From: Candidatus Saccharimonadota bacterium
Lineage (GTDB): Bacteria > Patescibacteriota > Gracilibacteria > UBA4473
DNA length: 32,000 bases
Assembly (NCBI GenBank): GCA_963677105.1
Contig: OY781871.1
Location: forward strand, 330,001 to 362,000
Reading direction: 5' to 3'
The notes beneath the pieces are model-generated. The model did no database searches and had not been told where the DNA came from. It saw nothing but the letters and a program-made list of their open reading frames with translations. Below, one piece after another: positions 8,107 through 26,652 of the stretch. The position numbers and the translations under genes are program-made. The first letter of the stretch is position 1. Each line of letters begins with the position of its first letter.

Positions 8107-8460
8107 TTAAAATCCTTCTTGAAAACGCACACCAGAAGATTTTCCTTCTATGAGAGATACTATACATTTTTCCTCTAAATCAAACATCGCCAATATTGTA
8201 TTTGGGAAAAATATTAAATATTTCTTTTTTCCTTTTGTTTTTATAAATTCATAATTCAAAAACTTTTCCTCTAAAATATCTTTTATTTTTTCTGTGCTTA
8301 GATTAACAAGTGCATCCTTGTTACAAGTTTCGACAAAACGAGAATACTGATTCCTCTCGCGAATCACTGTCCCCGCTATTAAAATCGCTAAAACAATAAT
8401 TACGGCTATAAGGTGTCGAAAAGCTTTTTTAATCATTATCTTCATCATTATCATCGTCAC
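8107..8460 (-). CDS. hypothetical single-pass membrane protein, first gene after the Rhs toxin (prime immunity candidate)
   Basis: 117-aa ORF. Several in-frame Met codons (MTMIMMKIMIKK) lie inside the last codons of the Rhs gene, so the true start may be as late as 8436. The TM helix IAVIIVLAILIAGTVI follows a basic stretch, so positive-inside logic puts the C-terminal domain outside the cell. Confidence 0.6.
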   Translation of the reverse strand: MTMIMMKIMIKKAFRHLIAVIIVLAILIAGTVIRERNQYSRFVETCNKDALVNLSTEKIKDILEEKFLNYEFIKTKGKKKYLIFFPNTILAMFDLEEKCIVSLIEGKSSGVRFQEGF

Positions 8461-11400: not shown

Positions 11401-13240
11401 CTAATTGATCATAATAAAATTTTGTTTCTCCTATAATATTCGACTCATTGTCTCGTATTTCTTTTCTTGAAGGAAACGAATGCAAATACATATCATCATT
11501 AGCAATATAATCTGTATAGGATGTAATCTTGTCTATTCCTATGTCGGTAAAACTTCCGTCGTTCGATGAAATATCTACTTCTCCATAATCGATTTCTTGA
11601 ATAACATTTCCATAATCATCATGCTGAAATGTGTTTGATTTTGCTCTAAAAGAATCATTCCCATCGTAATCAATTGCAGTTTCTCGTTCTAAAAAAACAA
11701 AAGATCGTTCTTCCTCTGGATCTTCATCTGGCAATACTTCTTGATTCCATTTTCGAATAACCACTGTTTGCAAATTTCCATTTGAGTCATGTGATTCTTC
11801 TCGAAACACACGTCCCTTTTTTACAATATTATCCTCAAATTCTCCGCGCAAACTACTCGCTTCATTGTCTGGAGAAAATTCACTTTGATGAAAATATGAC
11901 GTAGACACATTTCCCTCCGGATCGGTAACTATTGCTTTGTGAAACCCTGCATATTCTTTTTTATATGCATCTAAATTATCATAGTAATAATGTCCTCCTT
12001 CATATTCATATTCTGTTATGTATTCAGGAGCATTTACTGAGGCCTTCTTTTTAATTTCATGAACAGTATGAACAACAAATGGCAATGGATTTGCCTGACT
12101 ATTTCCAATTTTATTTGCCGTCGAAGGACGATATGTAAATTCTTCACTTCCTCCATAAGGGAACTGTACTTTTTTTAATACATTAATTTTTTTATTGGAT
12201 TCGTTTTCTTGTCCGTTGTAATAAAAAAACTGCGTAGCTGGCAATTCCAAGTTCCCTTTCTTTTGAGTAATTCGAGTGAGATTTGCAATAGCGTTATTTT
12301 TAAACTCGTACTCTAAATCATACTCATAAATCAACTCTGGTGTTCCTGTTTCTTTTGAATATATTTCAACGGCATCAATTACCTTATCGGTCGTTACTAC
12401 AAATCCTCTTTTATATTCTGTGTACGAAGGCCTTTCGCCAAGAATAAATTTTAATTCATATAAACCTTGGTCTTCATTAAATCCAGTATACTTAATAGTG
12501 TTTGGATACACTTGTCCCTGATGAAAAACATATGAAAAATTCATAAAGTTTCCATTCCTGTCTTCCACTTTTTCCAACATCCATTTATAAATTTTTGCAG
12601 TATCATCAGGATCGCTCTGACGTGTCGACGAATCAAGTCCAAACGTATATCGCGTTCCCTGTTTGTCAGTGGCAACCCACGCATTATTTTCAAAAACAAA
12701 ACGAATAAAATTTCCTTCATTTTTTGCCCCATATACATTGTTTTCAGAGTCTATAAGTATCAATTCTATCGTTTCTCCATTTATTTCAGCAGTGAAATCG
12801 TTCTCTGTATACAATGTATCAATTCCTTTCGTTGTACTTCGAAAAATACTTCCTAAGGAAATATCCCATCCAAATCCCACAATAGAATTAAATTGGTTAC
12901 TCTGACTCGAATACTGAAAAGAAACATTTGGTGTCATTCCTTTTCGCCCTTGAGGAAGTTTGATTGGATAATTAAAACTCACTCCACCTGTAAAGAGACT
13001 TGTTCCTGATTTTCCTCCAGAATCTTTCATAAAAGCAAACGGATCTACTGGAGTTGGCGTTGGCAACGTTGGTGGAAGTTCTGCTGGATCTGTAAGAATC
13101 GATCGTAAATCGTGTGAGAAATCTAAATGAGAAATGTTTACTATTTCACTTTCACTAAAAGAAAATCTTTCTTCAGCTCCCACAACACCAATATGGAAAA
13201 GAATGCTACAAAAAATGAGTATTGATATATTTTTTTTCAT
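8429..13240 (-). CDS. secreted Rhs/YD-repeat polymorphic toxin with SpvB/TcB-like N-terminal region
   Basis: 1603-aa ORF with signal peptide MKKNISILIFCSILFHIGVVGAEE. SpvB-like block TGGVSFNYPIKLPQGRKGMTPNVSFQYSSQSN...GFGWDISLGSI. Dozens of YD repeats (e.g. YEYDSQNRQIELT, FTYDLLGRKLSE, WTYDKLDRLV). Rhs core end FTGKEKDDETGLYYYGARYYDSNIGRFVGIDP...NNPLKYVDPSGES, followed by a 183-aa C-terminal extension. Confidence 0.95.
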   Translation of the reverse strand: MKKNISILIFCSILFHIGVVGAEERFSFSESEIVNISHLDFSHDLRSILTDPAELPPTLPTPTPVDPFAFMKDSGGKSGTSLFTGGVSFNYPIKLPQGRKGMTPNVSFQYSSQSNQFNSIVGFGWDISLGSIFRSTTKGIDTLYTENDFTAEINGETIELILIDSENNVYGAKNEGNFIRFVFENNAWVATDKQGTRYTFGLDSSTRQSDPDDTAKIYKWMLEKVEDRNGNFMNFSYVFHQGQVYPNTIKYTGFNEDQGLYELKFILGERPSYTEYKRGFVVTTDKVIDAVEIYSKETGTPELIYEYDLEYEFKNNAIANLTRITQKKGNLELPATQFFYYNGQENESNKKINVLKKVQFPYGGSEEFTYRPSTANKIGNSQANPLPFVVHTVHEIKKKASVNAPEYITEYEYEGGHYYYDNLDAYKKEYAGFHKAIVTDPEGNVSTSYFHQSEFSPDNEASSLRGEFEDNIVKKGRVFREESHDSNGNLQTVVIRKWNQEVLPDEDPEEERSFVFLERETAIDYDGNDSFRAKSNTFQHDDYGNVIQEIDYGEVDISSNDGSFTDIGIDKITSYTDYIANDDMYLHSFPSRKEIRDNESNIIGETKFYYDQLEFGNVHTGNVTATLQKEGDNSFVKTKMEYNEYGLPIVMTNPRGFTTTVSYDLHNLFPLEVQNALGQTTQFEYDYRFGVQSSTIDPNNLKNITEYDDFGRVSQVFVSNPENVNSEILQQEIFYDFSTYPVFVTERKYLEEDVSIDSFTYFDGFARPIQVRTKAEENNVYTVSHTEYDSRGNVKKEYLPLFSEGTSYTEPLNSTPGTTYEYDSQNRQIELTTSLGTTYSQYDNWEIEITDVLENKKNLIYDSRGNLIRVDEYLDDQQYATHYSYNSLNQLEKITDALGNEKHFTYDLLGRKLSEEQLHTPEDMTFGTSEFAYDRSGNLVYKKDAMGNEIKWTYDKLDRLVMEDYTRQNGMEIKYIYDEGINGIGRLTSVNSEGANDIYEYDILGRNTREERRLSGYRGIFETQFSYNLLGLLTSVHFPQQNEFNIKALYEYNNAGQLEEIKYKNMDTEEIDSVVMNLDYGPTGMLIRSDFANGVHTENTFDINEQYRLTDKVTTNQNRNLQSLHYTYDGVGNVTEIVDLSGTNTGKHATYEYDDLYRLTGANIVDTANEQDYTYSYGYDIVGNILNKPGIDRYVYAGNDPQTSSDTIAHPHAVTIAGEIEYMYDANGNLVSDGDKIYSWNYKNQMTHSRDSRIEVDYYYDHKNARVSKIPNGRWGTFYVNKYFDSKSNSPKLYFYAGNLKIATLTLDGLIYHHEDHLTGSNIDTNEEGNINQVLDYYPYGDIRLDDQLGDFDNDYKFTGKEKDDETGLYYYGARYYDSNIGRFVGIDPWEGDLTDPQSFNKYSYVTNNPLKYVDPSGESPIKPQLASYKIISRRIKMFEKNNPHLDANQTLSNISKQFKKSWDNASNRRYFYTDKSGWIDSKHFFVSADQTSRTGNLLTKALGLGVEIHQFITKSPSGFSYEDLPSNSAGIDFYNSLQNDLKKGKSVRLSQSFNNYIQNLNPTSPKDAPNYDEISSGDDTDLRSNVNSDKQKSDDDNDEDND
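8432..8980 (-). other. C-terminal variable (toxin) domain of the Rhs protein, unclassified, with acidic tail
   Basis: Everything after the DPSGES core-end motif (codons at 8981-8998). Sequence: PIKPQLASYK...YFYTDKSGWIDSKHFFVSADQTS...GVEIHQFITKSPSGFSYEDLPSNSAGIDFYNSL...SDDDNDEDND. It has no Cys and no nuclease, deaminase or ART motif I can name. Confidence 0.7.
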
Positions 13241-13258
13241 ACGAAGAATTAAAATAAT

Positions 13259-13861
13259 TTACGACATATCTGCGCAATCTCCTCTATAAAAAGGCTGTAA
13301 TGTGTCTTCATCAAATCCCGTTACACATCTATAAGCAATCTCCCATCCAGAACCAGTATTTAACATTATACAAGTAGCAAGTCTGGTATAATCAGCAATT
13401 TGATTATGAGTACCTGATTGATAAGATGTATAATTCATATTACTGTTATAGAAATAATCTACCAGTCCGTCTCCGTTTAAATCAATAAATTGATCCATTA
13501 TTATATTATAACTACTGTTTCCTACTTTCGGTATTAAATGCATCGACCAATCCGCATCTTCTTTAAAAACATTCGATGTATCCCATGTCTCAGAATTTCT
13601 CAGACAATGAGGAATATAATATGAAGGCGTTCTTGTGTTTGTTGTGCTTGGTTCATCGATAATATTATTTCTTGGTTCTAAGGCTACAACCAATAAATCT
13701 AATATTTTTTGAACAGATTGTGTCAGTTTTTCTATTACTGAACTTTCTGATGAAACTTTCTCCTGTGCAATGGAACTAGGAATAAAAAATACAAAAGAAA
13801 AAAGTGAAAACATCACCACAAATATTTTCACCGGCAAAAAACGATTTTTATAAAAATTCAT
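13259..13861 (-). CDS. secreted protein with one FG-GAP/TcB-propeller-like blade
   Basis: 200-aa ORF with signal-like N-terminus (VKIFVVMFSLFSFVFFIPSSIAQE). DLNGDGLVDYFY followed by IMLNTGSGWEIAY resembles the DxNxDGxxD ... N.G.G(F/W) blade of FG-GAP/Tc-toxin beta-propellers. It ends 18 nt upstream of the Rhs start. Confidence 0.6.
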   Translation of the reverse strand: MNFYKNRFLPVKIFVVMFSLFSFVFFIPSSIAQEKVSSESSVIEKLTQSVQKILDLLVVALEPRNNIIDEPSTTNTRTPSYYIPHCLRNSETWDTSNVFKEDADWSMHLIPKVGNSSYNIIMDQFIDLNGDGLVDYFYNSNMNYTSYQSGTHNQIADYTRLATCIMLNTGSGWEIAYRCVTGFDEDTLQPFYRGDCADMS

Positions 13862-13972
13862 AAATAAAAAATAAATTAAGAAATTGATTTAACTGTTATA
13901 GATAAAAGTAAAACTGTAAATCTAACATTTTCATTAAATTTTCATTTAAGTGATAATAACCAAAAAGAAAGT

Positions 13973-14149
13973 ATGACTTCCCCGAGCAAAATTCCTAAAC
14001 AACGAGATAAAAAGTGTTTTGCGAGGAAAAGGAGGAATAGCGCAGCAGTGAAGTTTTTTTGTGTAACAAAAAACGGAACCAGCAAAGCTTATTCCGACGT
14101 GGCTGAACATATGGGAGTTTATCAGGAACTAGTAATCTTTCCAAAATAG
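13973..14149 (+). CDS. possible small basic protein (58 aa), below the ORF-track cutoff
   Basis: My reading gives ATG 13973 ... TAG 14147-14149, translating to MTSPSKIPKQRDKKCFARKRRNSAAVKFFCVTKNGTSKAYSDVAEHMGVYQELVIFPK. No motif recognised, so it could be non-coding. Confidence 0.25.
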   Translation: MTSPSKIPKQRDKKCFARKRRNSAAVKFFCVTKNGTSKAYSDVAEHMGVYQELVIFPK

Positions 14150-14192: not shown

Positions 14193-14696
14193 ATGGAAAA
14201 TTTAGACCCTCGTACAGTAATAATCATTTTTATAGTTATTATTATATTCATTTTTTCTCCAGATAAAAAAACTAATTCGGGAAGGAATAAAAAAAGAAGT
14301 AAATCTCCTCGAGGGATTAAGTCCTACACAGAAAAAGGAGAAATGGTCAGAAGTAAGGCTGAGGCAAGAATTGCAAACTTTCTAACTAGAAAGAGCATAC
14401 ATTACATATATGAAAACCCTTTAACTTTAGAGGGCATTACTCTTAAACCAGACTTTTATTTACCCACATATAATACCTATATTGAATTTTTTGGTTTATA
14501 TAATAGGAACCTTAAATATACAGAAAGTGCCAAGAAAAAAAGGAAACTCTATCGAAGAAATAACATAAAAGTAATTGAACTCTTTCCAGAAGACTACAGA
14601 AGATTAGAAGAGGAATTAAACAATAAATTGATATTCCTTCGAATTTTTCATGTTTTGAAGTCTATAATTAAGGGAATTAAATCTTTATTTAATTAG
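14193..14696 (+). CDS. membrane-anchored PD-(D/E)xK-like nuclease-fold protein
   Basis: 167-aa ORF with an N-terminal TM helix (VIIIFIVIIIFIF) and a basic linker. Then VRSKAEARIANFLTRKSIHYIYENPLTLEGITLKPDFYLPTYNTYIEFFG...YTESAKKKRKLY. This fits the S..E..IA..L...I.Y.YE ... PDFYLP ... YIE..G pattern I know from the restriction-endonuclease-like module at the N-terminus of some UvrD/helicase-IV-type proteins. Confidence 0.5.
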   Translation: MENLDPRTVIIIFIVIIIFIFSPDKKTNSGRNKKRSKSPRGIKSYTEKGEMVRSKAEARIANFLTRKSIHYIYENPLTLEGITLKPDFYLPTYNTYIEFFGLYNRNLKYTESAKKKRKLYRRNNIKVIELFPEDYRRLEEELNNKLIFLRIFHVLKSIIKGIKSLFN

Positions 14697-14785: not shown

Positions 14786-15643
14786 TTATTTGTTCACAGA
14801 AGGGAGAGAACCATTTTTTCTAATTAACTCATCCATGGTTTTCCCATTTTTATCTTTCCATTCAGTCCAGCCATTTGCTCTTCTTGCAAGAACAACAGCA
14901 GCAGAGGCACTTGGAGAACTAAACGTATAATCATCTGTGAAGGTTAAAACATTTCCTTCTTGTTTTAAGACATTTTTTTGTTTTAGATCATCACGCATTC
15001 CAGTAACCCATGAACCTGCTGTTTTAGATTCTTCAAGATTTGATTTAGAACCTTTAAATACTGTAAATCCATCTTCGCTATATTCTCCAGTAGCAGAAGC
15101 ATCTTTTCCTTTGCAGTAAAATATATTTGATTTATCTTTTTGAGATTCTTCAAATATCGGAAAACCTAAAGTACTTATTAATAATTTTAAATCATCAAAA
15201 AAACTTAAAACAAAATCTTCATCTTGTTCTGTTAAGCTTGATTGAGTTGGATTTGTATTGTTTTCTAATTCACATTTATTAATTCTTTTTGCTTCATTAC
15301 AAGCAAAATTTTCTAAATATTTTATGTGTGCTTTGTTGATATTTTTCTTTTCGGAAACAAAACAAATTACAGAATTCCAAAATTCTTTTGAAGCATTATG
15401 CTGTTTAACTCTTTTTAATAAAACTTCAGCTTCTCCAATATAAATTTTATGTTTTCCAACTTCATTTTTTTCTCCAATCAAAAAATAAATCCCTGGATCT
15501 TTTAGTTCTCCTCTTTTACTTGCTTCTGCTAATTTATTTCTTGGAATGGAAAGTGCTTTAACTATGCCATTTGTAATTTCACAAATCTTTATACTTCTTG
15601 GATTTGCATCTGGAATGTAAATTGAGATGGTTCTTCCTCTCAT
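14786..15643 (-). CDS. GIY-YIG nuclease domain protein with C-terminal DUF4357-like domain
   Basis: 285-aa ORF. The N-terminal part carries GIYFLIGEKNEVGKHKIYIGEAEVLLKRVKQH (GIY...YIG...R..H). The C-terminal part carries FYCKGKDASATGEYSEDGFTVFKGS...FSSPSASAAVVLARRANGWTEWK, with the SPS motif and overall pattern of DUF4357. Confidence 0.75.
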   Translation of the reverse strand: MRGRTISIYIPDANPRSIKICEITNGIVKALSIPRNKLAEASKRGELKDPGIYFLIGEKNEVGKHKIYIGEAEVLLKRVKQHNASKEFWNSVICFVSEKKNINKAHIKYLENFACNEAKRINKCELENNTNPTQSSLTEQDEDFVLSFFDDLKLLISTLGFPIFEESQKDKSNIFYCKGKDASATGEYSEDGFTVFKGSKSNLEESKTAGSWVTGMRDDLKQKNVLKQEGNVLTFTDDYTFSSPSASAAVVLARRANGWTEWKDKNGKTMDELIRKNGSLPSVNK

Positions 15644-16035: not shown

Positions 16036-17307
16036 ATGCAAAATTCTCTCACAATCGTTTCCGTTCTTGTAAAAGATTTAAAACCAGCTACATATAATCC
16101 CCGAAAATGGGAACCAGGAGCAATTGAACAACTCACAGAAAGTATTCAGCGATTCGGATTAATTGATCCGATACTTGTTAACAGTGCAGACAACAGGAAA
16201 AATATCGTTATTGGCGGACATTTTCGACTTAAGATAGCCAAAGATTTAGGATTCACGGAAGTTCCTGTTGTATATTTGGATCTTCCCGACGAGGGAAAAG
16301 AAAAAGAACTTAATCTTCGACTTAATCGTAATACAGGAGAATGGGATTTTGAATTATTAAAGGACTTTGATATCAATCTCCTTTTAGACGCAGGATTTAA
16401 CGATACAGAACTTTCCATGGCTTGGGATGAAAATATTGAACTAGAAGATGACGGGTTTAACACGCGAAAAGAACTCGAAGCTATTATAAATCCAGAAACA
16501 AAAACTGGTGATATTTATCAATTGGGACGCCATAAATTAATTTGTGGTGATGCAACAAATCCTGAGGTAGTAAATACGCTTCTTGGAGACTCAAAAATAA
16601 ATACCATCTATGCTGACCCACCCTATAATTTAAATTATGATTATCAAAAAGGGCTGGGTAAAGAGAAAAAATACAAATGCCAAGAGGTAAAAGATGATCG
16701 GAGTAATGAAGAATATCGAATATTTCTAGAAAAAACACTTCATAACGGCCTCGACCATTGTGAAAAAGATGTGCATATTTTTTATTGGTGTGATCAGAAA
16801 TATATTGGATTATTACAGGATTTATATGCATCAAATGGAATAAACAACAAACGAGTGTGTCTATGGATTAAAAATAATCAAAATGCGACTCCGCAGGTAG
16901 CATTTAATAAATGTTATGAACCATGCGTTTATGGAACGATTGGAAATCCTTATCTATCAAAAAAACATTTTAGCTTTACTGAAATTCTCAACCCTGAAAT
17001 TGGCACAGGAAATCAAACTATCGAAGATATTGAAGATTTATTAGATATCTGGATGATAAAACGACTTCCAACCGCTGATTATCTACATCCCACGGAGAAG
17101 CCGGTAACACTACATGAGAAACCGCTTAAACGATGTACAAAAGCAGGCGATAACATTTTAGATTTTTTTGGAGGATCAGGTTCAACATTAATTGCCTGTG
17201 AACAACTGGGACGTACTGCTTTCTTGGTAGAAAAAGATCCTGTTTTTTGTGATATTATAATTCGTCGTTGGGAAAAATTAACAAAAGGCTTAGCCAAAAA
17301 AATATAA
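16036..17307 (+). CDS. ParB-like nuclease domain fused to an N6-adenine/N4-cytosine DNA methyltransferase (DPPY type)
   Basis: 423-aa ORF. N-terminus: LKPATYNPRKW...LTESIQRFGLIDPILV...VIGGHFRLKIAKDLG (ParB/Srx-like). C-terminus: IYADPPYN (motif IV), HPTEKPVTL, ILDFFGGSGSTLIACEQLGR (SAM-binding motif I). This is the permuted beta-class order common in phage or plasmid orphan methylases. Confidence 0.85.
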   Translation: MQNSLTIVSVLVKDLKPATYNPRKWEPGAIEQLTESIQRFGLIDPILVNSADNRKNIVIGGHFRLKIAKDLGFTEVPVVYLDLPDEGKEKELNLRLNRNTGEWDFELLKDFDINLLLDAGFNDTELSMAWDENIELEDDGFNTRKELEAIINPETKTGDIYQLGRHKLICGDATNPEVVNTLLGDSKINTIYADPPYNLNYDYQKGLGKEKKYKCQEVKDDRSNEEYRIFLEKTLHNGLDHCEKDVHIFYWCDQKYIGLLQDLYASNGINNKRVCLWIKNNQNATPQVAFNKCYEPCVYGTIGNPYLSKKHFSFTEILNPEIGTGNQTIEDIEDLLDIWMIKRLPTADYLHPTEKPVTLHEKPLKRCTKAGDNILDFFGGSGSTLIACEQLGRTAFLVEKDPVFCDIIIRRWEKLTKGLAKKI

Positions 17308-17780
17308 TGGGACGAAAAGCTAACTTTTCAGCAAAAGAAAGAAATGAGTGTAAAAGCTCATTGATTGGGATGTTGGAAAAAAGTCCTTTTATTGAAATAG
17401 CTTGTAATAAAGTTGGTATTACTCGAATGACCTTGATTAGGTGGCAAAAGACGGACAAAGATTTTTCCGAAGATATACAAAAAGCGATTAATCTTTCTCG
17501 TGAAAAAATAAATGATCTAGCGGAATCAAAACTAATTGGAAAAATTCAAGAAGGGAATATGACGGCTATTAGCTTTTGGCTGAGACATAACAATCCAATA
17601 TATGGAAAATCTGGTGTTTCAGTGAAAATAGAACCCGAATCTAAGACTTTAATAATTATACCCTCCAATGGTAGAGATTGCATTGATTATAAAAGGAAAA
17701 GTAAGAGAAAAAGAGACTCTTTTTATAATAGTCTTGCAGGAAGGAACCACCTCCGAAATAGTGGATCAGAGAAAAAGTGA
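17307..17780 (+). CDS. HTH DNA-binding protein, terminase-small-subunit-like
   Basis: The track ORF starts at 17268, but the in-frame ATG at 17307 forms a TAATG overlap with the methyltransferase stop. IEIACNKVGITRMTLIRWQKTDKDFSEDIQKA plus AISFWLRHNNPIYGK resembles the N-terminal HTH and W.L...P motif of phage TerS-type proteins. The call is tentative. Confidence 0.45.
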   Translation: MGRKANFSAKERNECKSSLIGMLEKSPFIEIACNKVGITRMTLIRWQKTDKDFSEDIQKAINLSREKINDLAESKLIGKIQEGNMTAISFWLRHNNPIYGKSGVSVKIEPESKTLIIIPSNGRDCIDYKRKSKRKRDSFYNSLAGRNHLRNSGSEKK

Positions 17781-17824: not shown

Positions 17825-19093
17825 ATGGAAAAAGAAATACCGCCTACATACTGTCTTTACGCCAGAAAATCATCAGAAGCAGATGAACGACAAGCAATGA
17901 GTATTGATTCGCAAATAGCAGAAATGACTCGTATAGCAGAAAAAGAAGGAGTTAAGATTGTAGAAACGATTCGAGAGAGTAAGTCAGCTAAAGCCTCGGG
18001 TGTTCGCGAAGGATATCGGAAGCTTTTAGAGGGCATCAGAGAAGAACGATTCAATTCCATACTCACATGGGCCCCTGACCGATTAAGTCGAAATGCGGGA
18101 GACTTAGGGGGTCTTGTGGACCTAATGGATCAAGGGGATTTGCAAAAAATACAAACGAGTGGGCAAACATTCACCAATACTCCCGATGAAAAATTTCTTC
18201 TTATGATTCTTTGTTCTCAGGCAAAATTAGAGAACGACAATCGGGCAAAAAACGTAAAACGAGGACTACGGGCGAAATGTGCATTGGGAATTAGACCTGG
18301 ACAGCCCCCTATTGGATACACATTAATTCGAAGTACCAAATTTGGAGAACCCAGTAGCGTTGTTATAGATGAAGAAAGAGCTCCTTTTATTCGCAAGGCG
18401 TTTGATTACGTCGTAAATGGAGGACTTAGTGGCAGACAGGCATGGGAATATCTTGTTGATGAAGGATTTCGGGCTCGTTCAGGGAAAGTCCCTCCGATTA
18501 GTATGATTTTCCGAATACTCAGTGACACCTATTATTATGGAAAATTTGAATATCCCAAAGGAAGTGATACTTGGTATCAAGGAGAATACGAGCCCATTAT
18601 CACGAAGGATGTTTTTGAAAAAGTTCGTAAAGCACTTAAGACTTCTGATAAAGGGAAATGGGGACGGAAGAATTTTTATTTTAACCATATCCTCAAATGC
18701 GGACACTGTGGGAGTGGTATTTCTGGGGAATCACACGTCAACCGTCACGGAAAGGAATACACCTACTACAAGTGCAATAAGCATGGAGGAAGAAAGAGCT
18801 GTAACTCTAAATACATTCGAGAAGAAAAATTGATTGAACAGATAGCAGGATTGGTAGACAAGATATCCGTAGAACATCTTCATCTCAAACGAAAAATCGT
18901 CCATGAGGTCAATAAATGGAACACTATGGAAAAGATGAGGCATGGAGAAAAATCCAAAATGATTACCGTAGAAGAATATATAAACTTTATTCTCTCTCGA
19001 GGAAGCGTGAAGGAGAAAGGAGAAATGTTAAAGGAATTAGAGGAAAAATTAGTACTTAAAGATGGGATTATTAGCATTTTAAAAACTATTTAA
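17825..19093 (+). CDS. large serine recombinase (phage-integrase/transposase type)
   Basis: 422-aa ORF. The resolvase catalytic domain shows YARKSSEADERQAMSIDSQ, DRLSRN and AKLENDNRAKNVKRGL. A recombinase domain and Cys-rich zinc ribbon follow (CGHCGSGISG...YYKCNKHGGRKSC), with a coiled-coil tail. Confidence 0.9.
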   Translation: MEKEIPPTYCLYARKSSEADERQAMSIDSQIAEMTRIAEKEGVKIVETIRESKSAKASGVREGYRKLLEGIREERFNSILTWAPDRLSRNAGDLGGLVDLMDQGDLQKIQTSGQTFTNTPDEKFLLMILCSQAKLENDNRAKNVKRGLRAKCALGIRPGQPPIGYTLIRSTKFGEPSSVVIDEERAPFIRKAFDYVVNGGLSGRQAWEYLVDEGFRARSGKVPPISMIFRILSDTYYYGKFEYPKGSDTWYQGEYEPIITKDVFEKVRKALKTSDKGKWGRKNFYFNHILKCGHCGSGISGESHVNRHGKEYTYYKCNKHGGRKSCNSKYIREEKLIEQIAGLVDKISVEHLHLKRKIVHEVNKWNTMEKMRHGEKSKMITVEEYINFILSRGSVKEKGEMLKELEEKLVLKDGIISILKTI

Positions 19094-19122: not shown

Positions 19123-21531
19123 ATGAAAGCGAGTAGAATGGCAACGTTTACTCAAGATGAAATTGGAATGACTAATAAAAAAGAACTTTCAGAACAAGAC
19201 ATTTGTACTAAATATATTACCCCTGCATTAGAAGCTGCTCAATGGGATAAGATGACTCAAATACGAGAGCAGGTTTCTTTCACAAAAGGACGAATTCAAG
19301 TTCATGGAAAAATAGTTACACGAGGAGACGGAAAACGTGCAGATTATATTCTTTATTACAAATCAAGTATTCCCCTTGCTGTTGTAGAAGCAAAAGACAA
19401 CAAGCACTCTGTAGGTGCAGGAATGCAGCAGGCACAAGATTATGCAGAAACACTTGATGTTCCCTTTGCCTTTAGTTCAAATGGTGATGGATTTGTTGAG
19501 CATGATTTTCTTACTGGTAAAGAACGAACTCTTTCTTTGGAAGAATTTCCAAATCCAGAAAATTTGTATCAAAGATATAAAGAAGCACATGGATTAACTG
19601 CAGAGAAAGAAAAAATTATTCAGTTTCCCTATCACTCTGACGGTTCTGGGAAAACGGCTCGTTATTATCAAGAGATTGCTATTAATCGTTCAATAAAAGC
19701 TATTGCTGAAGGACAAAAAAGAGCATTGCTTGTTATGGCAACAGGAACAGGAAAAACGTTTACTGCGGGACAAATTATTTGGAGATTATGGAAATCGGGA
19801 GCAGCAAAAAGAATATTACTTCTTGCTGACCGAAATATTTTGGTTGATCAGACTATGACTAATGACTTCAAACATTTTGGAGACAAAATGATAAAAATAA
19901 AACGAGGAAATATCAGTAAAGCACATGAGATTTATCTAGGGCTTTATCAATCGCTCACTGGAAGCGAGGAAGAACAAAATGCTTATAAAGAATTTTCTCC
20001 AGACTTTTTCGATTTAATTGTGATAGACGAGTGTCATCGTGGAAGTGCTTCCGTTGATTCAGCGTGGCGTGAAATACTGGATTACTTCAGTTCGGCTACG
20101 CACATTGGATTAACTGCTACGCCAAAAGAGACGAATGAAATTTCAAATATGGAATATTTTGGTCAGCCAATTTATACATACTCTTTGAAGCAAGGAATTG
20201 AAGATGGATTTCTTGCACCATACAAAGTAATTCAAGTAATGCTGGATAAAGATATCGGTGGGTATCGACCGAGCATTACTGATACCGACAAAGACGGAAA
20301 AGTGATTGAAGATAAATTATATGGAACAAAAGACTTTGATCGAACTCTTGTACTTGAGCAACGAACACAAGCAGTTGCACAAGAAATTAGTCGATATTTA
20401 AAACAAACCGATCGTTACTCAAAAACCATTGTTTTCTGTGTTGATATTGAACACGCCGAACGAATGCGACAAGCACTAGTAAATGAAAATGCTGATCTAG
20501 TAAAAGAAAATCGAAAATATGTTATGCGTATTACTGGAGACAATCCTGAAGGGAAAGCGGAGTTGGATAACTTTATCGATCCAGAAAGTATTTATCCGAC
20601 CCTTGTAACTACCAGCAAATTGATGACTACAGGAGTTGATGCTCAGACATGTAAATTAATTGTATTAGACTCCAATATCGCCTCAATGACAGAATTTAAA
20701 CAAATTATTGGACGAGGAACTCGAATCAATGAAGAGTTTGGAAAAACTCATTTCACTATTCTTGATTTCCGTAAGGTAACAGAATTATTTGCAGACCCAG
20801 ACTTTGATGGAGAACCTGTTCAAATAAAAGAAATTACACAAGGAGAAGATATTCCAGAAGAAATTTTGGAAGGAGAAGAAGGAGAGGAAATTGTGATTGA
20901 AGAAAACGAAGGAACATATGATATCCCTAAAATTATTGATGGAGGGGATATTGATGAAGAAGGACCACGAAAGAAAATTTATATTGATGATGTTCCTGTG
21001 GAAATTGCGTACAAACGTACGCAGTATTTGGATGGAAATGGAAAACTAATTACGGAATCATTAAAAGATTATTCTCGTAAAAAAATACTGAAAGAGTACG
21101 ACTCGCTAGATAAATTTATTAATGAATGGGACAAACATAAGCAGAAATATCTCATCATTCAGGAACTAGAAAGGCAAGGTATCTATTTAAGTGATTTACA
21201 AGAAAGTGTAGGAACAGACGTCGATCCGTTTGATTTAATTTTGCATGTTGCTTTTGACCAGAAGAAGATTAAGACACGAAAGGAACGAGCAGAAAAAGTG
21301 CGAAAGAGTAACTACTTCGCTAAATATTCCGAGACCGCACAAAAGGTGCTAAGTGCTCTTCTCGATAAGTATGCAGACGAAGGATTGCAACATATTGAGG
21401 AAATTCGTATTTTGACTGTTTCTCCGTTATCTGTGCTCGGTTCTCCGATTGAGATTGTGCAGGAGTTTGGAGGAAGGGAGAAGTATTTGGAGGCCGTAGG
21501 AGAGTTGGAGAAAGAGATTTATAATATTTAA
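19123..21531 (+). CDS. hsdR: type I restriction enzyme R subunit
   Basis: 802-aa ORF; an alternative start at ATG 19168 gives MTNKKELSEQDICTKYITPAL. N-terminal PD-(D/E)xK shows ADYILYY...LAVVEAKD. Helicase motifs are VMATGTGKT, VIDECHRG, GLTATP and QIIGRGTR. The C-terminal DPFDLILHVAFD...FGG...Y..AV is like the EcoEI-R C-terminal domain. Confidence 0.92.
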   Translation: MKASRMATFTQDEIGMTNKKELSEQDICTKYITPALEAAQWDKMTQIREQVSFTKGRIQVHGKIVTRGDGKRADYILYYKSSIPLAVVEAKDNKHSVGAGMQQAQDYAETLDVPFAFSSNGDGFVEHDFLTGKERTLSLEEFPNPENLYQRYKEAHGLTAEKEKIIQFPYHSDGSGKTARYYQEIAINRSIKAIAEGQKRALLVMATGTGKTFTAGQIIWRLWKSGAAKRILLLADRNILVDQTMTNDFKHFGDKMIKIKRGNISKAHEIYLGLYQSLTGSEEEQNAYKEFSPDFFDLIVIDECHRGSASVDSAWREILDYFSSATHIGLTATPKETNEISNMEYFGQPIYTYSLKQGIEDGFLAPYKVIQVMLDKDIGGYRPSITDTDKDGKVIEDKLYGTKDFDRTLVLEQRTQAVAQEISRYLKQTDRYSKTIVFCVDIEHAERMRQALVNENADLVKENRKYVMRITGDNPEGKAELDNFIDPESIYPTLVTTSKLMTTGVDAQTCKLIVLDSNIASMTEFKQIIGRGTRINEEFGKTHFTILDFRKVTELFADPDFDGEPVQIKEITQGEDIPEEILEGEEGEEIVIEENEGTYDIPKIIDGGDIDEEGPRKKIYIDDVPVEIAYKRTQYLDGNGKLITESLKDYSRKKILKEYDSLDKFINEWDKHKQKYLIIQELERQGIYLSDLQESVGTDVDPFDLILHVAFDQKKIKTRKERAEKVRKSNYFAKYSETAQKVLSALLDKYADEGLQHIEEIRILTVSPLSVLGSPIEIVQEFGGREKYLEAVGELEKEIYNI

Positions 21532-21535
21532 TAAT

Positions 21536-22651
21536 ATGGAAAAATATAAAATTCAAATTAAGGAAAAGGAAAAATTTATTAGAAAACTGTCCTTTTTAAA
21601 TCTTCGCGATGAAGTGACAAACTTTATGTACAAGAAAACGATTGCCAGTGCATCGAGACGAGATCTGTTATTATTTGTATTAATTTTCTTTTTATCTATT
21701 AAGAAGCCTAATGCAAAAAATTCATTACTATATTCTCTGCTAGAGCAAAATTTAGAAAAATTGCAGAAATTTAATAAGTTTTTAGAAGAAAAAAGGGTTA
21801 TGTTAAAGCAGGGAGAATATGAAAAAATAAAAGAAAAATTCAAATTAACAGATGCCTTAAAGTATGACGTATTATTTTTGTTAATAGAAGGAGTGACTGA
21901 TGCGGAAATTTTGAAAATAAAGTATTCGGATTTTTTTAAAAAAAATAAGGAATTATTAAAAGAATTTGATGTTGTAGTTGCAAAATTTGGTCAACAAGTA
22001 GATATGACGTATTTAAAATTTAAAGAATTTCACATAGAAGATGATCGATATGATGAAGAAACAGGAGAGCATTATGATTTAAGTAAGAGTGTTTATAGAC
22101 CTGTAAAAATGCGCTTAAGAAGAAAGCTGGATATTTCATTACAGCAGTTTACAGAAATTAAGGAAATTAAGAGTGAGAGCCCTATAATTGTTGATTTTAT
22201 ACAAAGCGTAGACCCAGATATTATTTTTGAATTGTGGGAGAAGTACCATTTAGTAGAATATTTGAAAGGTATTTATGATTTGATAAAAAATAATGTTTCG
22301 CTAAGTTTGAATTTAGATTTAGGTGACTTGATTATAGGATACATTCTTTGGAAAACTACAGATGGGAGAAAGAAAAAAGAGAAGGAAGAAAAAAATGATA
22401 ACTTTAAGCAAAAGAAGACTGAATACTTAAAAAAAGAAAATTCTTTATTAAAAGCTTTAAATTCGTCTTTGCAAAAAACACAAGAATCATTAGAAAAAGA
22501 AATTGAAAATTTGGAAAATCGTTTGGGTAAATTAGAAAAAAAGTCAGAATTAACAGGCGAGGAAAATCAATTAAAAAAAGCTATTTCTTTGGAACTTAAA
22601 AAGCTGAAAAACCTTTCAGTAACTGTCGTTAAAATGGAAACTCATGACTAA
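21536..22651 (+). CDS. hypothetical protein X embedded between hsdR and hsdM (Lys/Glu-rich, coiled-coil C-terminus)
   Basis: 371-aa ORF starting 4 nt after the hsdR double stop and overlapping the hsdM start by 8 nt. It has a short hydrophobic patch (LLLFVLIFFLSI). The C-terminal ~90 aa look like heptads (KKENSLLKALNSSLQKTQESLEKEIENLENRLGKLEKK). No catalytic motif recognised. It is visibly more A/T-rich than the flanking hsd genes. Confidence 0.65.
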   Translation: MEKYKIQIKEKEKFIRKLSFLNLRDEVTNFMYKKTIASASRRDLLLFVLIFFLSIKKPNAKNSLLYSLLEQNLEKLQKFNKFLEEKRVMLKQGEYEKIKEKFKLTDALKYDVLFLLIEGVTDAEILKIKYSDFFKKNKELLKEFDVVVAKFGQQVDMTYLKFKEFHIEDDRYDEETGEHYDLSKSVYRPVKMRLRRKLDISLQQFTEIKEIKSESPIIVDFIQSVDPDIIFELWEKYHLVEYLKGIYDLIKNNVSLSLNLDLGDLIIGYILWKTTDGRKKKEKEEKNDNFKQKKTEYLKKENSLLKALNSSLQKTQESLEKEIENLENRLGKLEKKSELTGEENQLKKAISLELKKLKNLSVTVVKMETHD

Positions 22652-24065
22652 CTTATCAGGCATCATCAAATCAATCCAAAACATCATGAGAGAAGATCAT
22701 GGTGTAGACGGAGACGCGCAACGTCTCTCCCAGCTTTGCTGGATGTTATTTCTCAAAATCTTCGATGAAAAAGAGGAGGAACGAGAATTAATGAACACAA
22801 GTTATAAATCACCAATTCCCGATGAATTACGTTGGAGAAGTTGGGCAGCAAATGAAGAAGGAATTACGGGAGACACTTTGTTGAGTTTTATTAATAATGA
22901 TCTCTTTCCTACATTGAGTACCTTGGATACAACTCTCGATGCAGGAAAAATCGTAAAAGCTGTCTTTGAAGATAGTTACAATTATATGAAAAACGGAACG
23001 CAGTTACGAATGGTGGTGAATAAACTCAACGAAATGAGTTTTAATCGTAAAGATGACCGTGATCAATTTGGAATGATTTACGAGGAGTTACTTCGAAGCC
23101 TACAGAGTGCAGGAAATGCAGGAGAGTTTTATACACCACGAGCCATTACGCAGTTCTTAGTAGATATGGTAAATCCAAAATTGGGAGAAAAAGTTCTTGA
23201 TCCGGCGTGTGGAACAGGAGGATTTCTTACTTCTGTAATTGAACACGTGCGAAAAAACGATGTTCATACCGCTGAGGATGAGGCGAAAATTAAAGAAAAT
23301 ATTCAAGGAACAGAACTAAAATCACTTCCACACATGCTCTGTGTGACAAATATGATTTTGCACGGAATCAACGCTCCTACAAATGTAACACATGGCGATT
23401 CTCTGGCTCGACCCATCAAGGATATTGGACCATCGGATAAAGTGGACTGTATCGTTGCTAATCCTCCATTTGGAGGAAGTGTGAAAGCGGGGATTTTGGC
23501 GAATTTCCCTAAAACTTTTCAAACCAAAGAAACAGCTGACTTATTCCTCGTGTTGTTTTTCAGGTTATTGAAGGCAAACGGACGTGCGGGAATAGTCTTG
23601 CCCGATGGTTCTTTGACTGGAGACGGAATTAAGGCTCGAATTCGCGAGAAATGGCTCACGGAATTCAATTTACACACAATTATTCGATTGCCAAATTCCG
23701 TGTTTGCACCATATGCGACAGTGGCGACGAATTTATTGTTTTTCAAGGCAGGAGTACCGACCAAGGAGGTTTGGTATTACGAGCACAAGTTACCAGAAGG
23801 ACAGAAGGCATATAATAAGACTCGGCCAATTAATATAAAAGAGTTTGATCCAATTAAAAAGTGGTGGGACAACCGCACTGAGGGTGATGTTGCGTGGAAA
23901 GTGAGTATTGATGAAATCGTAGAACGAGGTTGGGATCTTGATATAAAAAATCCTACTAAGCAGGAGAAAGAGATTGCGTATTCTACAGAGGAGTTAATTG
24001 AAATGTTGGAATATTCATTTAAGGAAAGTCAGAAAATTTTGGATTCTTTAAAATCAGAGTTATGA
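22644..24065 (+). CDS. hsdM: type I R-M N6-adenine DNA methyltransferase M subunit
   Basis: 473-aa ORF with an HsdM N-terminal helical domain. FYTPRAI, LDPACGTGGFL (motif I) and IVANPPFGG (motif IV) are present. Confidence 0.92.
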   Translation: MTNLSGIIKSIQNIMREDHGVDGDAQRLSQLCWMLFLKIFDEKEEERELMNTSYKSPIPDELRWRSWAANEEGITGDTLLSFINNDLFPTLSTLDTTLDAGKIVKAVFEDSYNYMKNGTQLRMVVNKLNEMSFNRKDDRDQFGMIYEELLRSLQSAGNAGEFYTPRAITQFLVDMVNPKLGEKVLDPACGTGGFLTSVIEHVRKNDVHTAEDEAKIKENIQGTELKSLPHMLCVTNMILHGINAPTNVTHGDSLARPIKDIGPSDKVDCIVANPPFGGSVKAGILANFPKTFQTKETADLFLVLFFRLLKANGRAGIVLPDGSLTGDGIKARIREKWLTEFNLHTIIRLPNSVFAPYATVATNLLFFKAGVPTKEVWYYEHKLPEGQKAYNKTRPINIKEFDPIKKWWDNRTEGDVAWKVSIDEIVERGWDLDIKNPTKQEKEIAYSTEELIEMLEYSFKESQKILDSLKSEL

Positions 24066-24601
24066 AGAAAATAGAAAAAATTGGTTACTATGTCCTTATT
24101 CCCATTATTTCTATTGGAGGTCTTATTTGGTTGTTGAATATTAATTTTTTTTCAAATATTGAAAAATCAATTGAAGCAAGTGTTAAGATTATACAAGCAT
24201 TTGCTATTCTCCTTGGAGGCTTATGGGCATACCATAAATTTGATTGGGGGAAAAAAGCCGAAAGTGCCATAAAAATAAAGGCAATGCTTATGGAATATTC
24301 TCAAATACACAATGAAGTAGCAGGACAATATAGAATGGATATTAAAGGAGGAATGAGTGAAGATGATGCTTATGGGAAATATGCGATATCACTTCTTTCA
24401 GCAAGAAATAATTTTGTGTCTCAGGTGCATCTTTCTTGTTATTTACCAAAAAAGTTAAGAGAAAAAATATTTAACACGGTTTGGTTGACCGTAGGAAATG
24501 GACACGGAGAAAACAGAAAAGATTTAACTTCAAATTGGGAAAAGTTTGAAAAAGAATCAACTCAAATAAAAGATGAACTCGATAACATTGTTTCAAAATG
24601 A
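24062..24601 (+). CDS. hypothetical 2-TM membrane protein Y embedded between hsdM and hsdS
   Basis: 179-aa ORF with ATGA overlaps at both ends (24062-24065 and 24598-24601). It has two hydrophobic helices (IGYYVLIPIISIGGLIWLLNI; IIQAFAILLGGLWAY), then a ~115-aa soluble region. The post-TM2 segment WAYHKFDWGKKAESAIKIKAMLMEY is reminiscent of SLATT/DUF4231-type 2-TM effectors (unverified). Confidence 0.65.
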   Translation: MKKIEKIGYYVLIPIISIGGLIWLLNINFFSNIEKSIEASVKIIQAFAILLGGLWAYHKFDWGKKAESAIKIKAMLMEYSQIHNEVAGQYRMDIKGGMSEDDAYGKYAISLLSARNNFVSQVHLSCYLPKKLREKIFNTVWLTVGNGHGENRKDLTSNWEKFEKESTQIKDELDNIVSK

Positions 24602-25830
24602 GTGATTATAAAATAGTGAGCATTGAAGATGTTTGCACTATCACAAAAGGTTCTACCGGAATTCAAAAGGCTATTGATGGAGATTTTCCGATGGTTACTC
24701 TTGCCGAAAAAAGAAGGACACATAATGAATTTCAATTTAATTGTGAAGCAGTCTTAATTCCACTTGTTTCATCTACGGGTCACGGACACGCCAGCATGAA
24801 GAGAGTTCATTATCAAGAAGGGAAATTCGCTCTTGGCTCAATTCTTTGTGCTGTAATACCTAAAGATACCAATTATTTAAATGCCAAATATCTTCATATC
24901 TATCTTTCGTATTTAAAGGAGAAATTACTGGTTCCTTTAATGCGAGGTGCTGCAAATGTTTCATTATCTATTTCTAATATAAAAACCGTTGAGGTGGTAA
25001 TACCGTCAATTGAGCGACAGCTTGAAATTATTGAGCTAGAGCAGGTGTTGCGAGTCCAAAAGCAAAAATTGGATCAGGAAAATATATTCCAACAGTCTCA
25101 TCTCAAGAATCTCCGTCAACAAATCCTCCAAGATGCAATTAGTGGGAAATTAACGACTGATTGGCGAGCCGAGAATCCTGATATCGAACCAGCAAGCGAA
25201 CTTCTCAAACAAATCAAAACAGAAAAAGAAAAATTGATTGCGGAGAAGAAAATAAAAAAAGGAAAACCACTTGCTCCGATTTCTGTGGAGGAAATTCCGT
25301 TTGATTTGCCAGAGGGATGGGTATGGTGTCGATTGGGAGAGATAATCATAATGAATTATGGCTCGGGTCTAACAAAGCACCAAAGAAAGTCGGATGGAGA
25401 ATATCCTGTCTTTGGATCAAATGGAATTGTTGGGCATCATGATGAATTTTTAACAGAACATAGAGCAATCATAATTGGGAGAAAAGGATCTGCAGGTGCA
25501 ATTAATACTTCAGATACTCCATCTTGGACAACAGATGTTGCTTATTTTGTTGAAGAAACACAAAATTTAGATTTCAAATATCTTTATTATCTCCTTAAAT
25601 CTTTAGGATTAGATTCTCTTGGAAAAGGTATTAAACCTGGTCTAAATAGAAATGAAGCTTATGCGTTACCAATTCCTCTCCCCCCACGTGCCGAACAAAA
25701 AGCAATTGTTATCAAAATCGAAAAACTAATGGAATACGTGGGACAGTTGGAAAAATTAGCAGAGAAGAATAAAGAGAATACGGACACATTGATGCAGGCG
25801 TTTCTGGGGGAAGTGTTTAGAAAAAAATAG
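24598..25830 (+). CDS. hsdS: type I R-M specificity subunit (two target-recognition domains)
   Basis: 410-aa ORF with two TRD-like halves. They are separated by a central conserved helix (LRQQILQDAISGKLT). The second half opens with the classic LPEGWVWCRLGEI, and the C-terminal conserved region has PLPPRAEQKAIV... Confidence 0.9.
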   Translation: MSDYKIVSIEDVCTITKGSTGIQKAIDGDFPMVTLAEKRRTHNEFQFNCEAVLIPLVSSTGHGHASMKRVHYQEGKFALGSILCAVIPKDTNYLNAKYLHIYLSYLKEKLLVPLMRGAANVSLSISNIKTVEVVIPSIERQLEIIELEQVLRVQKQKLDQENIFQQSHLKNLRQQILQDAISGKLTTDWRAENPDIEPASELLKQIKTEKEKLIAEKKIKKGKPLAPISVEEIPFDLPEGWVWCRLGEIIIMNYGSGLTKHQRKSDGEYPVFGSNGIVGHHDEFLTEHRAIIIGRKGSAGAINTSDTPSWTTDVAYFVEETQNLDFKYLYYLLKSLGLDSLGKGIKPGLNRNEAYALPIPLPPRAEQKAIVIKIEKLMEYVGQLEKLAEKNKENTDTLMQAFLGEVFRKK

Positions 25831-25832
25831 AT

Positions 25833-26414
25833 ATGAATATTAACAAGCCCTCGTTACAAGAAATACACAATTATCTCGAAAAATGGGATTCATTGGATAG
25901 TTATGTGTCACAAGAAAGCAGTTTGAAGAAATTATTTTCAAAAACATATCCTCAAAACATAGAATTGGATGATGTGCTTATAAAAGTATGTGCTCTTAAT
26001 GATTTTTACAGTACCAATATTTTTTCACCCTTTGCTGTAGCAAAACATATCGTAGCCTTAAATATCGACAAAATTTTAGATAAAAATGATCTAGAAATTG
26101 TAAATAAAATTGCCTATGTGGAGGTAAAAGATGGGATTTTCAAAAATTTTTATTCCTTTGCGACAAAATACTGCAGTCATCATAAGCCCACGATCTATCC
26201 CATATATGATTCGTATCTAGAAAAGATTCTGATGTATTTTAAAAAGAAAGATAAATTTTGTACTTTCAAAAAGGAAGAGTTGAAAACATATTCAGAATTT
26301 AAAAGAATTCTTATGGAGTTCAGGGAATTCTATGGATTAGAGGTATTTGATTTAAAACAAATAGATAAGTATTTATGGCAATTGGGAAAAGAATATTTTC
26401 CAAGAAAGTATTAA
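25833..26414 (+). CDS. hypothetical soluble protein Z, last gene of the R-M operon
   Basis: 193-aa ORF starting 2 nt after the hsdS stop. Conserved-looking blocks are CALNDFYSTNIF and SFATKYCSHHKPTIYPIYDSYLEKIL. No family can be named from memory. Confidence 0.6.
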   Translation: MNINKPSLQEIHNYLEKWDSLDSYVSQESSLKKLFSKTYPQNIELDDVLIKVCALNDFYSTNIFSPFAVAKHIVALNIDKILDKNDLEIVNKIAYVEVKDGIFKNFYSFATKYCSHHKPTIYPIYDSYLEKILMYFKKKDKFCTFKKEELKTYSEFKRILMEFREFYGLEVFDLKQIDKYLWQLGKEYFPRKY

Positions 26415-26504: not shown

Positions 26505-26531
26505 ATAAAGAAAAAGCGGGTCTAGAACCCG
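26505..26531 (-). terminator. weak intrinsic terminator downstream of tRNA-Gln (may also serve the + strand R-M operon)
   Basis: Stem CGGGT/ACCCG (26517-26521 with 26527-26531) and a 5-nt loop. On the minus strand it is followed by CTTTTTCTTTAT (26516-26505). The short stem keeps confidence low. Confidence 0.4.
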
Positions 26532-26577
26532 TCTTATATCTTTGTCTGTAGGACACTATTGAATATAGTGCAGCAGT

Positions 26578-26652
26578 TGGCTGGGGCGGAGGGATTCGAA
26601 CCCCCGAATGCTGGTACCAGAAACCAGTGCCTTACCACTTGGCGACGCCCCA
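26578..26652 (-). tRNA. tRNA-Gln (anticodon CUG), CCA encoded
   Basis: The minus-strand 75-nt sequence is TGGGGCGTCGCCAAGTGGTAAGGCACTGGTTTCTGGTACCAGCATTCGGGGGTTCGAATCCCTCCGCCCCAGCCA. It folds into a cloverleaf with a 7-bp acceptor stem (U1-A72, typical of tRNA-Gln) and a GG-containing D loop. The anticodon stem is CTGGT/ACCAG with loop TTCTGGT (anticodon CTG), the T arm is GGGGG-TTCGAAT-CCCTC, and the discriminator G precedes CCA. It is very similar to E. coli tRNA-Gln(CUG). Confidence 0.95.

Follow-up and report, generated by a model that had tools for sequence, protein, structure and literature searches.

In a 32,000-nt stretch of contig OY781871.1 (hereafter the window, whose numbering is used throughout), six co-oriented genes at 19123-26414, namely hsdR, X, hsdM, Y, hsdS and Z, form a type I restriction-modification (R-M) operon in which the three canonical subunits alternate with three other genes. 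X and Y are probably independent cassettes embedded in this operon, most likely with an autonomous second-layer defence role, and Z an unrelated cargo gene of mobile elements. The first-pass annotation had combined the three into one candidate defence module coupled to the R-M system. Such a single three-gene module is effectively excluded by the comparison of loci: no two of X, Y and Z occurred together at any other of the surveyed homologue loci, and the sister operon L006/L047 retained hsdR, hsdM, Y and hsdS in this order, with an Mrr gene in place of X and no Z. The X and Y trees also conflicted with those of HsdR, HsdM and HsdS, and each gene was therefore acquired separately.

Recurrent embedding of X and Y

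The window and L006/L047 were collinear, with ~70-72% nucleotide identity over hsdR and hsdM-Y-hsdS; the protein identities with L006 were 71% for HsdR, 76-78% for HsdM, 54% for Y and 60-64% for HsdS. Homology to L006 was lost exactly at X (21567-22643), the slot being filled there by a gene encoding an Mrr_cat (type IV-like) nuclease (L006:5681-6571). This X-for-Mrr exchange represents a clean natural cassette swap and identifies this position of the type I operon as a swap slot. A second break, in the second target-recognition region of hsdS (25343-25673), was the only unalignable part of hsdM-Y-hsdS and is consistent with the exchange of a target-recognition domain and a different half-site specificity. 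Homology to L006/L047 stopped at the end of hsdS.

No significant match to X, Y or Z was found in Pfam, NCBIfam, PADLOC-DB v2.0.0 (zero families at E ≤ 0.1) or PHROGs, and profile searches against PDB sequences with the three proteins and with the N-terminal extension of the long Z form described below returned nothing. The earlier statement that none of them carries a PrrC/RloC-like motif was confirmed, no P-loop, ABC or HEPN-type match being detected (Pfam, NCBIfam, PADLOC). The checks proposed in the first-pass annotation agreed with this: no PADLOC protein model was matched by any of the three, the structure models of X (against PDB) and Z (against PDB and BFVD) had no significant fold neighbour, and no housekeeping family was assigned. 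X and Y are nested on the same strand within a multi-gene defence system and their homologues are recurrently embedded; with no PADLOC-DB v2 model matching them, they are therefore new candidates of a known kind of embedded gene.

The X family is tiny and uniform. A word-indexed search retrieved 10 homologues, and an exhaustive HMMER search with the core (residues 1-248) retrieved 37 representatives in 1.84 billion proteins, full-length members having ~360-400 aa and the others being shorter fragments; the exhaustive search revealed no added domains or fusions and no bridge to other families. The AlphaFold model of X (predicted local distance difference test score, pLDDT, 81; predicted template modelling score 0.81) showed an alpha/beta core followed by a long helical tail. 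Across 27 family members, a scan at E ≤ 1 for a consistent weak signal gave only coiled-coil noise.

Five of the eight distinct X loci lay inside R-M operons (four type I and one type III) and one more was linked to a TIR gene; these context counts are small and many of the contigs are short. The four type I loci used three different slots, with the gene orders hsdR-X-hsdM (window), hsdR-hsdM-X-hsdS (L003/L004), hsdR-96aa-X-79aa-422aa-580aa-hsdS-Fic-hsdM (L002) and hsdR-X-86aa-hsdS-hsdM (L085/L086). X followed the type III genes in the order Mod-Res-X (L083), adjoined a MazE-like / HTH-SocA-Panacea toxin-antitoxin pair in L084, and had an unknown context in L087/L088. The X proteins from L003 (type I) and L083 (type III) were 65% identical, the closest relative of the window X was the TIR-linked copy of L001 (51%), and the window and L003 shared 58% identity in HsdR and 38% in X. 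X does not track its host operon, because these identities cut across both HsdR identities and system types.

In L001 (7308-9125), the X homologue stood beside a gene encoding a 228-aa ThsB-like TIR-domain protein, which it followed after a 6-nt gap, the two being set among housekeeping genes; they may constitute a two-gene TIR-X system. L002 (5367-16446) and L085/L086 belonged to a UGA-recoded lineage, with 13 and 4 in-frame TGA codons, respectively, in their X genes. Translation of UGA as Gly (code 25) agreed with the Gly columns of the X alignment and, in L002, restored canonical Walker A sequences (GENGSGKS, GKFGIGKS) to two large embedded genes; the type I operon of this locus held at least five embedded genes, including a Fic gene. 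Homologous ~80-aa proteins were encoded 3' of X at L002:9186-9425 and L085:1699-1959, their C-terminus forming a glycine-zipper-like transmembrane helix (GLLSGIIGGVISGIIVYL), and may serve X as a membrane partner specific to the UGA=Gly lineage. A conserved general partner gene for X was rejected, this small downstream transmembrane protein being common only to the two UGA-recoded loci.

Hydropathy bore out the earlier description of Y as a protein with two transmembrane segments and of Z as soluble: two N-terminal transmembrane helices were seen in Y, followed by a helical domain of ~120 aa, and none in Z. The charge distribution of Y suggests an N-in/C-in topology, and its helical domain is probably cytoplasmic. 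Matches to SLATT_6 and Cap15_TM were each obtained for one of the 23 Y members, with E ~0.03, at chance level. The commonest weak match, DUF3792 (12 of the 23 members; best E 0.0065), reflected generic transmembrane composition, and the scan at E ≤ 1 otherwise gave noise.

Relatives of Y comprised 23 homologues and 7 metagenome loci. Y was found in R-M operons at 5 of 11 loci and alone at the other six. One solo copy was placed among SLFN-like helicase, RadC and PD-(D/E)xK genes, and the remaining ones had housekeeping neighbours (e.g. ATP synthase, MgsA, isocitrate dehydrogenase and an A2M-like protein). The embedded copies were located exactly between hsdM and hsdS at five distinct loci (window, L005, L006/7/8/47, L043 and L044), four of them with ATGA overlaps on both sides and L005 with gaps of ~10 nt to hsdM and hsdS. 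These five loci span three HsdM families that are mutually 25-32% identical, and L005 has a different HsdR type. Between the window and L005, identity was 69% for Y, 25% for HsdM and 15% for HsdS; likewise, the L006 Y grouped with those of L043 and L044 (69-72%), yet their HsdM proteins were only 32% identical. Solo and embedded copies were interleaved in the Y tree. As this tree conflicts with those of HsdM and HsdS, Y arrived repeatedly at the same junction, and this repeated arrival at hsdM|hsdS is, on the sequence comparisons, the strongest unusual signal of the locus.

On the preferred reading, a type IB operon has gathered three accessory genes, unrelated to one another and each acquired in its own event, X and Y being autonomous cassettes repeatedly embedded in restriction operons. 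X takes variable slots, mostly directly 3' of a helicase-type restriction subunit, and embedded Y always the hsdM|hsdS slot; through embedding, both would be co-transcribed, translationally coupled and transferred together with the R-M system. The locus comparisons establish the operon anatomy, the separate acquisitions and the repeated embedding, and suggest a defence function and effector mechanism. Following the logic of 'guilt-by-embedding', the recurrence makes an independent second-layer anti-phage defence the likeliest function of X and Y. The candidate effectors would be, for Y, a membrane protein with two transmembrane helices and a ~120-aa cytoplasmic domain and, for X, a coiled-coil stalk bearing a novel alpha/beta core.

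A closer coupling would make Y, and possibly X, a PrrC-like guardian, held inactive on the type I complex until an anti-restriction protein of the Ocr, ArdA or Stp type frees the effector and causes killing or arrest, for Y through membrane disruption. We regard this as unlikely. Its weight falls mainly on Y because of the junction fidelity of this gene: Y in R-M operons was always exactly at hsdM|hsdS, reached independently in three HsdM families and usually with ATGA overlaps, an arrangement that predicts near-stoichiometric co-translation with M and S, and the topology proposed above would bring its cytoplasmic domain within reach of M2S1. X lay directly after a helicase-type R/Res subunit at four of its eight loci, and PrrC is an established precedent. 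However, PrrC is almost exclusively embedded (10.1101/2024.01.29.577857), whereas R-M genes were absent at 6 of 11 Y loci and 3 of 8 X loci; that about half of the Y copies and several X copies occur away from R-M genes argues against obligatory coupling. A docking Y would moreover need to recognise HsdM/HsdS partners only 15-25% identical, and X, Y and Z carry no P-loop, nuclease or other PrrC/RloC-like domain. Equally doubtful is a more specific version in which Y, as a new kind of R-M guardian, binds the conserved M2S1 core through its cytoplasmic domain, with membrane depolarisation or abortive infection following when anti-restriction proteins disrupt the complex. Here X would be a separately acquired sensor-effector pairing with helicase-type restriction subunits or TIR, with its own glycine-zipper membrane partner in UGA=Gly lineages. 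Docking on a conserved M2S1 core would account for the independent recruitment of Y to hsdM|hsdS in three unrelated type I families.

Z and its genomic contexts

The Z family comprised more than 4,500 homologous clusters, with 60-90% identity across Patescibacteria, Bacteroidota, Planctomycetota, Desulfovibrio, Gammaproteobacteria, Spirochaetes and other groups, the closest homologues belonging to Peribacteria/Patescibacteria metagenome-assembled genomes (MAGs). This conservation across phyla points to strong constraint together with horizontal transfer. The precomputed annotation tag PF27257 was attached to Z itself and to all 120 homologues among the matches listed, and no mention of it was found in the literature searched. 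The structure model (pLDDT 93) was all-alpha with one hairpin. Its best Foldseek hits were HhH-GPD-like folds (DUF2419/Qng1, endonuclease III) with E-values of 0.77-1.7, probability ≤ 0.28 and template modelling (TM) scores of 0.22-0.38, values at which Z does not qualify as a glycosylase fold. A match to the Pfam family DUF6308 was sub-threshold (E 0.03).

The survey of homologue neighbourhoods, put forward as a check of the link to defence proposed for all three genes, makes this link plausible for X and Y, both recurrent in restriction operons; for Z it points to mobile-element cargo. Among 62 other loci, none had Z adjacent to a type I set, and most had no restriction gene nearby. About 12 copies were 3' of, or flanking, genes for type IIG Eco57I-like enzymes, type III Mod/Res, GmrSD, Abi_2, HD-CE/HATPase, RhuM-Fic or a Cas4-like nuclease; other copies came after housekeeping genes (tgt, agmatine deiminase, OAD-beta). 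Large serine recombinases were found within 5 kb at 19 of the 62 loci, an association inflated by the selection of IMG/VR contigs. Many homologues (L056-L078, IMG/VR) had a two-domain form of ~320 aa, whose N-terminal ~130 aa make up a conserved domain marked by the motifs T..D.FY.WR....FW and Y.SHLRRFR.F. In either orientation, this long form was located ~1 kb away from two large serine recombinase genes arranged in tandem (e.g. L057:1800-7579).

In the Parcubacteria MAG contig JABHSK010000005.1 (L016), a perfect 43-bp direct repeat (6728-6770 / 9399-9441) enclosed a 2.7-kb insert at the 3' end of tgt. The insert contained, in this order, a replacement tgt 3' end, a Z homologue as the first cargo gene and three small open reading frames (ORFs), and lacked a recombinase gene; a fragment of the original tgt 3' end, displaced by the insert, was at 9401-9697 (68% amino acid identity). 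By this arrangement, the insert is a mini-island with defined attachment (att) sites. Truncated Z copies, matching residues 89-193, 111-193, 127-191 or 135-191, were present in L037, L039 (where the copy adjoins OAD-beta), L040 and L041, and are apparently decaying. An RptR-type regulator was rejected, RptR being an unrelated 79-aa protein encoded by the first gene of its own operon. Judged by its contexts, Z is a widespread cargo gene of mobile elements and no restriction component. Its annotation in this operon should not be read otherwise, and it shows extreme cross-phylum conservation at the edges of integrative elements.

A non-defence accessory role in R-M, in which X and/or Y would, for instance, tether the methyltransferase core to the membrane or assist in assembly or regulation and Z would be a regulator of restriction operons, appears improbable. 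EcoKI, EcoAI and like type I enzymes have been reported at the cytoplasmic membrane, which would suit a tether, as does the fixed M|S position of Y; for Z, placement on the same strand 3' of restriction genes of types I, IIG, III and IV, often with gaps of 2-35 nt, and the extra conserved N-terminal domain of the long variants point the same way. The great majority of type I systems, however, lack X and Y, each family having only tens of members in billions of proteins. Solo copies exist, the sister operon L006 carries the Mrr gene where X would be, and Z has no detectable match to a DNA-binding family and is mostly away from restriction genes. Selfish or neutral hitchhiking of X, Y and Z in insertion-tolerant R-M loci, as addiction, element-maintenance or decaying cargo genes with no role against phages, is just as improbable: the good conservation of all three, their invariant motifs and their confident folds indicate purifying selection, the non-R-M partners of X are themselves defence-type genes (TIR, toxin-antitoxin), and in the published survey few embedded genes were mobility-associated (3.1% in the Hma-embedded set), and protection against phage was seen with seven tested embedded candidates (10.1101/2024.01.29.577857).

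Operon anatomy and island surroundings

The six co-oriented ORFs of the first-pass annotation and their coordinates (Table 1) were recovered on recheck, with junctions of +4, -8, -4 (ATGA), -4 (ATGA) and +2 nt. No convincing terminator-like hairpin was detected within the operon, the first good one after hsdR lying 3' of Z. The proposed co-transcription is thereby supported, the six genes resembling one transcription unit with tight junctions and its sole convincing hairpin past Z. GC content was 27-31% in X, Y and Z versus 36-40% in the hsd genes.

HsdR was full-length, with an SF2 helicase core containing a visible DECH motif and a C-terminal EcoEI_R_C domain, and scored 1167.8 bits against the NF046051 equivalog (cutoff 550; residues 22-801), which places it in the EcoAI/EcoEI type. 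The HsdM translation contained the AdoMet motif DPACGTGGF and NPPFGG, as in a gamma-class N6-adenine methyltransferase with HsdM_N. Two target-recognition domains were present in HsdS, and its PADLOC mad5-like alignments were full-length. From these domains, the hsd genes are predicted to encode an intact EcoAI-family (type IB) R-M system. Phase variation of hsdS by a shufflon using the neighbouring recombinase was rejected: the window contained no second hsdS-like fragment, and the recombinase belongs to the large, integrase-type enzymes.

Table 1. Positions of the operon genes and neighbouring features in the window.
Feature	Position	Strand	Basis or remark
HNH / resolvase-like endonuclease gene, near probable left part of island	14193..14696	+	PHROG matches: Holliday junction resolvase, HNH endonuclease
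DUF4357 / GIY-YIG (RAMA-like) gene, restriction-associated	14786..15643	-	Pfam DUF4357 1e-21; weak RAMA, GIY-YIG; phrog_12629 2e-61
ParB-N fused DNA methyltransferase gene (N6_N4_Mtase), orphan methylase of phage/mobile-element type	16036..17307	+	Pfam; phrog_498 2e-98
Terminase-small-subunit-like helix-turn-helix gene	17268..17780	+	Pfam HTH_Tnp_1_2; PHROG terminase small subunit families
Large serine recombinase (integrase) gene	17825..19093	+	Pfam Resolvase, Recombinase, Zn_ribbon_recom; phrog_95 integrase 4e-59
hsdR, type IB (EcoAI family) restriction subunit	19123..21531	+	NF046051; ResIII, EcoEI_R_C (Pfam); PADLOC REase_I
X, 371 aa, candidate embedded cassette in R|M slot	21536..22651	+	Conserved alpha/beta core ~residues 1-250, coiled-coil tail
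hsdM, type I methyltransferase subunit	22644..24065	+	N6_Mtase 1e-66, HsdM_N 8e-13; PADLOC MTase_I 1e-201
Y, 179 aa, candidate embedded cassette at M|S junction, ATGA overlaps on both sides	24062..24601	+	Hydropathy; alignment of 23 homologues
hsdS, specificity subunit	24598..25830	+	Methylase_S in 2 stretches (Pfam); PADLOC Specificity_I
Z, 193 aa, soluble	25833..26414	+	Homologous clusters (65-87% identity, many phyla); structure model; contexts
Bidirectional terminator-like hairpin	26516..26532		Hairpin search
tRNA-Gln(CTG), probable right-hand border/attachment region	26578..26652	-	ARAGORN; Rfam tRNA 60 bits

The R-M operon is, as predicted from its surroundings, the right-hand, tRNA-Gln-proximal end of a small serine-recombinase island. 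The large serine recombinase gene stops 29 nt 5' of hsdR and may be co-transcribed with the operon; further upstream, the genes encoding the ParB-fused methylase and the terminase-small-subunit-like protein overlap. The left border of the island is undefined, because neither flanking direct repeats nor a duplicated tRNA fragment were found when searched for. GC skew and AT skew both switch sign at 13000-14000, where the genes change from the minus to the plus strand, and this flip at ~13-14 kb corresponds either to the island border or to a replication-related switch. Just outside the island, a 1603-aa ORF (8429-13240, minus strand) matched phrog_10385, a family of unknown function, in three stretches (7e-103). 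A prophage in the upstream part of the window was rejected, the genes before ~14 kb including those for DAHP synthase and a giant protein and no structural phage genes. The contig is 962 kb long, and the genome, probably of ~1 Mb, is likely that of a Patescibacteria host, as judged by the closest Z homologues.

Comparison with known embedded defence genes

Little of the defence repertoire of Patescibacteria (candidate phyla radiation, CPR) has been charted, and two protein families unseen by existing defence models come from the locus and its relatives. The X family has links to type I, type III and TIR genes; the Y family, within R-M operons, is specific to the hsdM|hsdS junction. If X or Y does protect against phage, a new defence gene would be added, and the repeated, independent capture of Y at one precise junction would offer a natural experiment on the nesting of defence genes, setting expression coupling against physical partnership.

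The first-pass annotation presented the module as a candidate undescribed one; the general phenomenon has already been published and systematically surveyed. Genes embedded in type I R-M systems are common, 96.7% being co-oriented and more than half of unknown function (Payne, Hughes, Fineran & Jackson 2024, 10.1101/2024.01.29.577857). The HEC/PDC candidates of that survey, nested in operons of type I R-M, BREX, DISARM or Hma systems, resemble X, Y and Z as uncharacterised co-oriented genes with non-embedded copies elsewhere. They differ in that X, Y and Z match no model of PADLOC-DB v2.0.0, which is taken here to include HEC/PDC (the paper reports their addition with the version unnamed, 10.1101/2024.01.29.577857). 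The survey drew on RefSeq v209, and X and Y were found only in metagenome-derived, apparently CPR-type sequences.

PrrC (EcoprrI, type IC) and RloC or the Campylobacter rlo ORFs share with this locus a non-hsd gene in a co-oriented type I operon and a possible linked second line of defence, but PrrC and RloC combine an ABC-ATPase with an anticodon nuclease, domains that X, Y and Z lack. The SLATT and Cap15 transmembrane effectors resemble Y as small proteins with two N-terminal transmembrane helices and a soluble helical part in a defence locus; Y does not belong to either family by sequence match and has no nucleotide-signalling partner in its locus, so that the resemblance is a functional analogy only.

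Similar in arrangement to the autonomous cassettes proposed here are independent systems embedded between hsd genes, such as TgvAB, a defence system within the type I cluster of Vibrio cholerae VPI-2 (PMC11411939), and DarTG2, located between hsdS and hsdR in the Escherichia coli RRDM island, a 'recombination hotspot' (PMC12255303). Both act autonomously; they belong to recognisable families (GmrSD-like and DarT/DarG, respectively), and X and Y do not. The Mrr-type gene in the X slot of L006 follows the same idea, a type IV-like nuclease gene nested within a type I operon.

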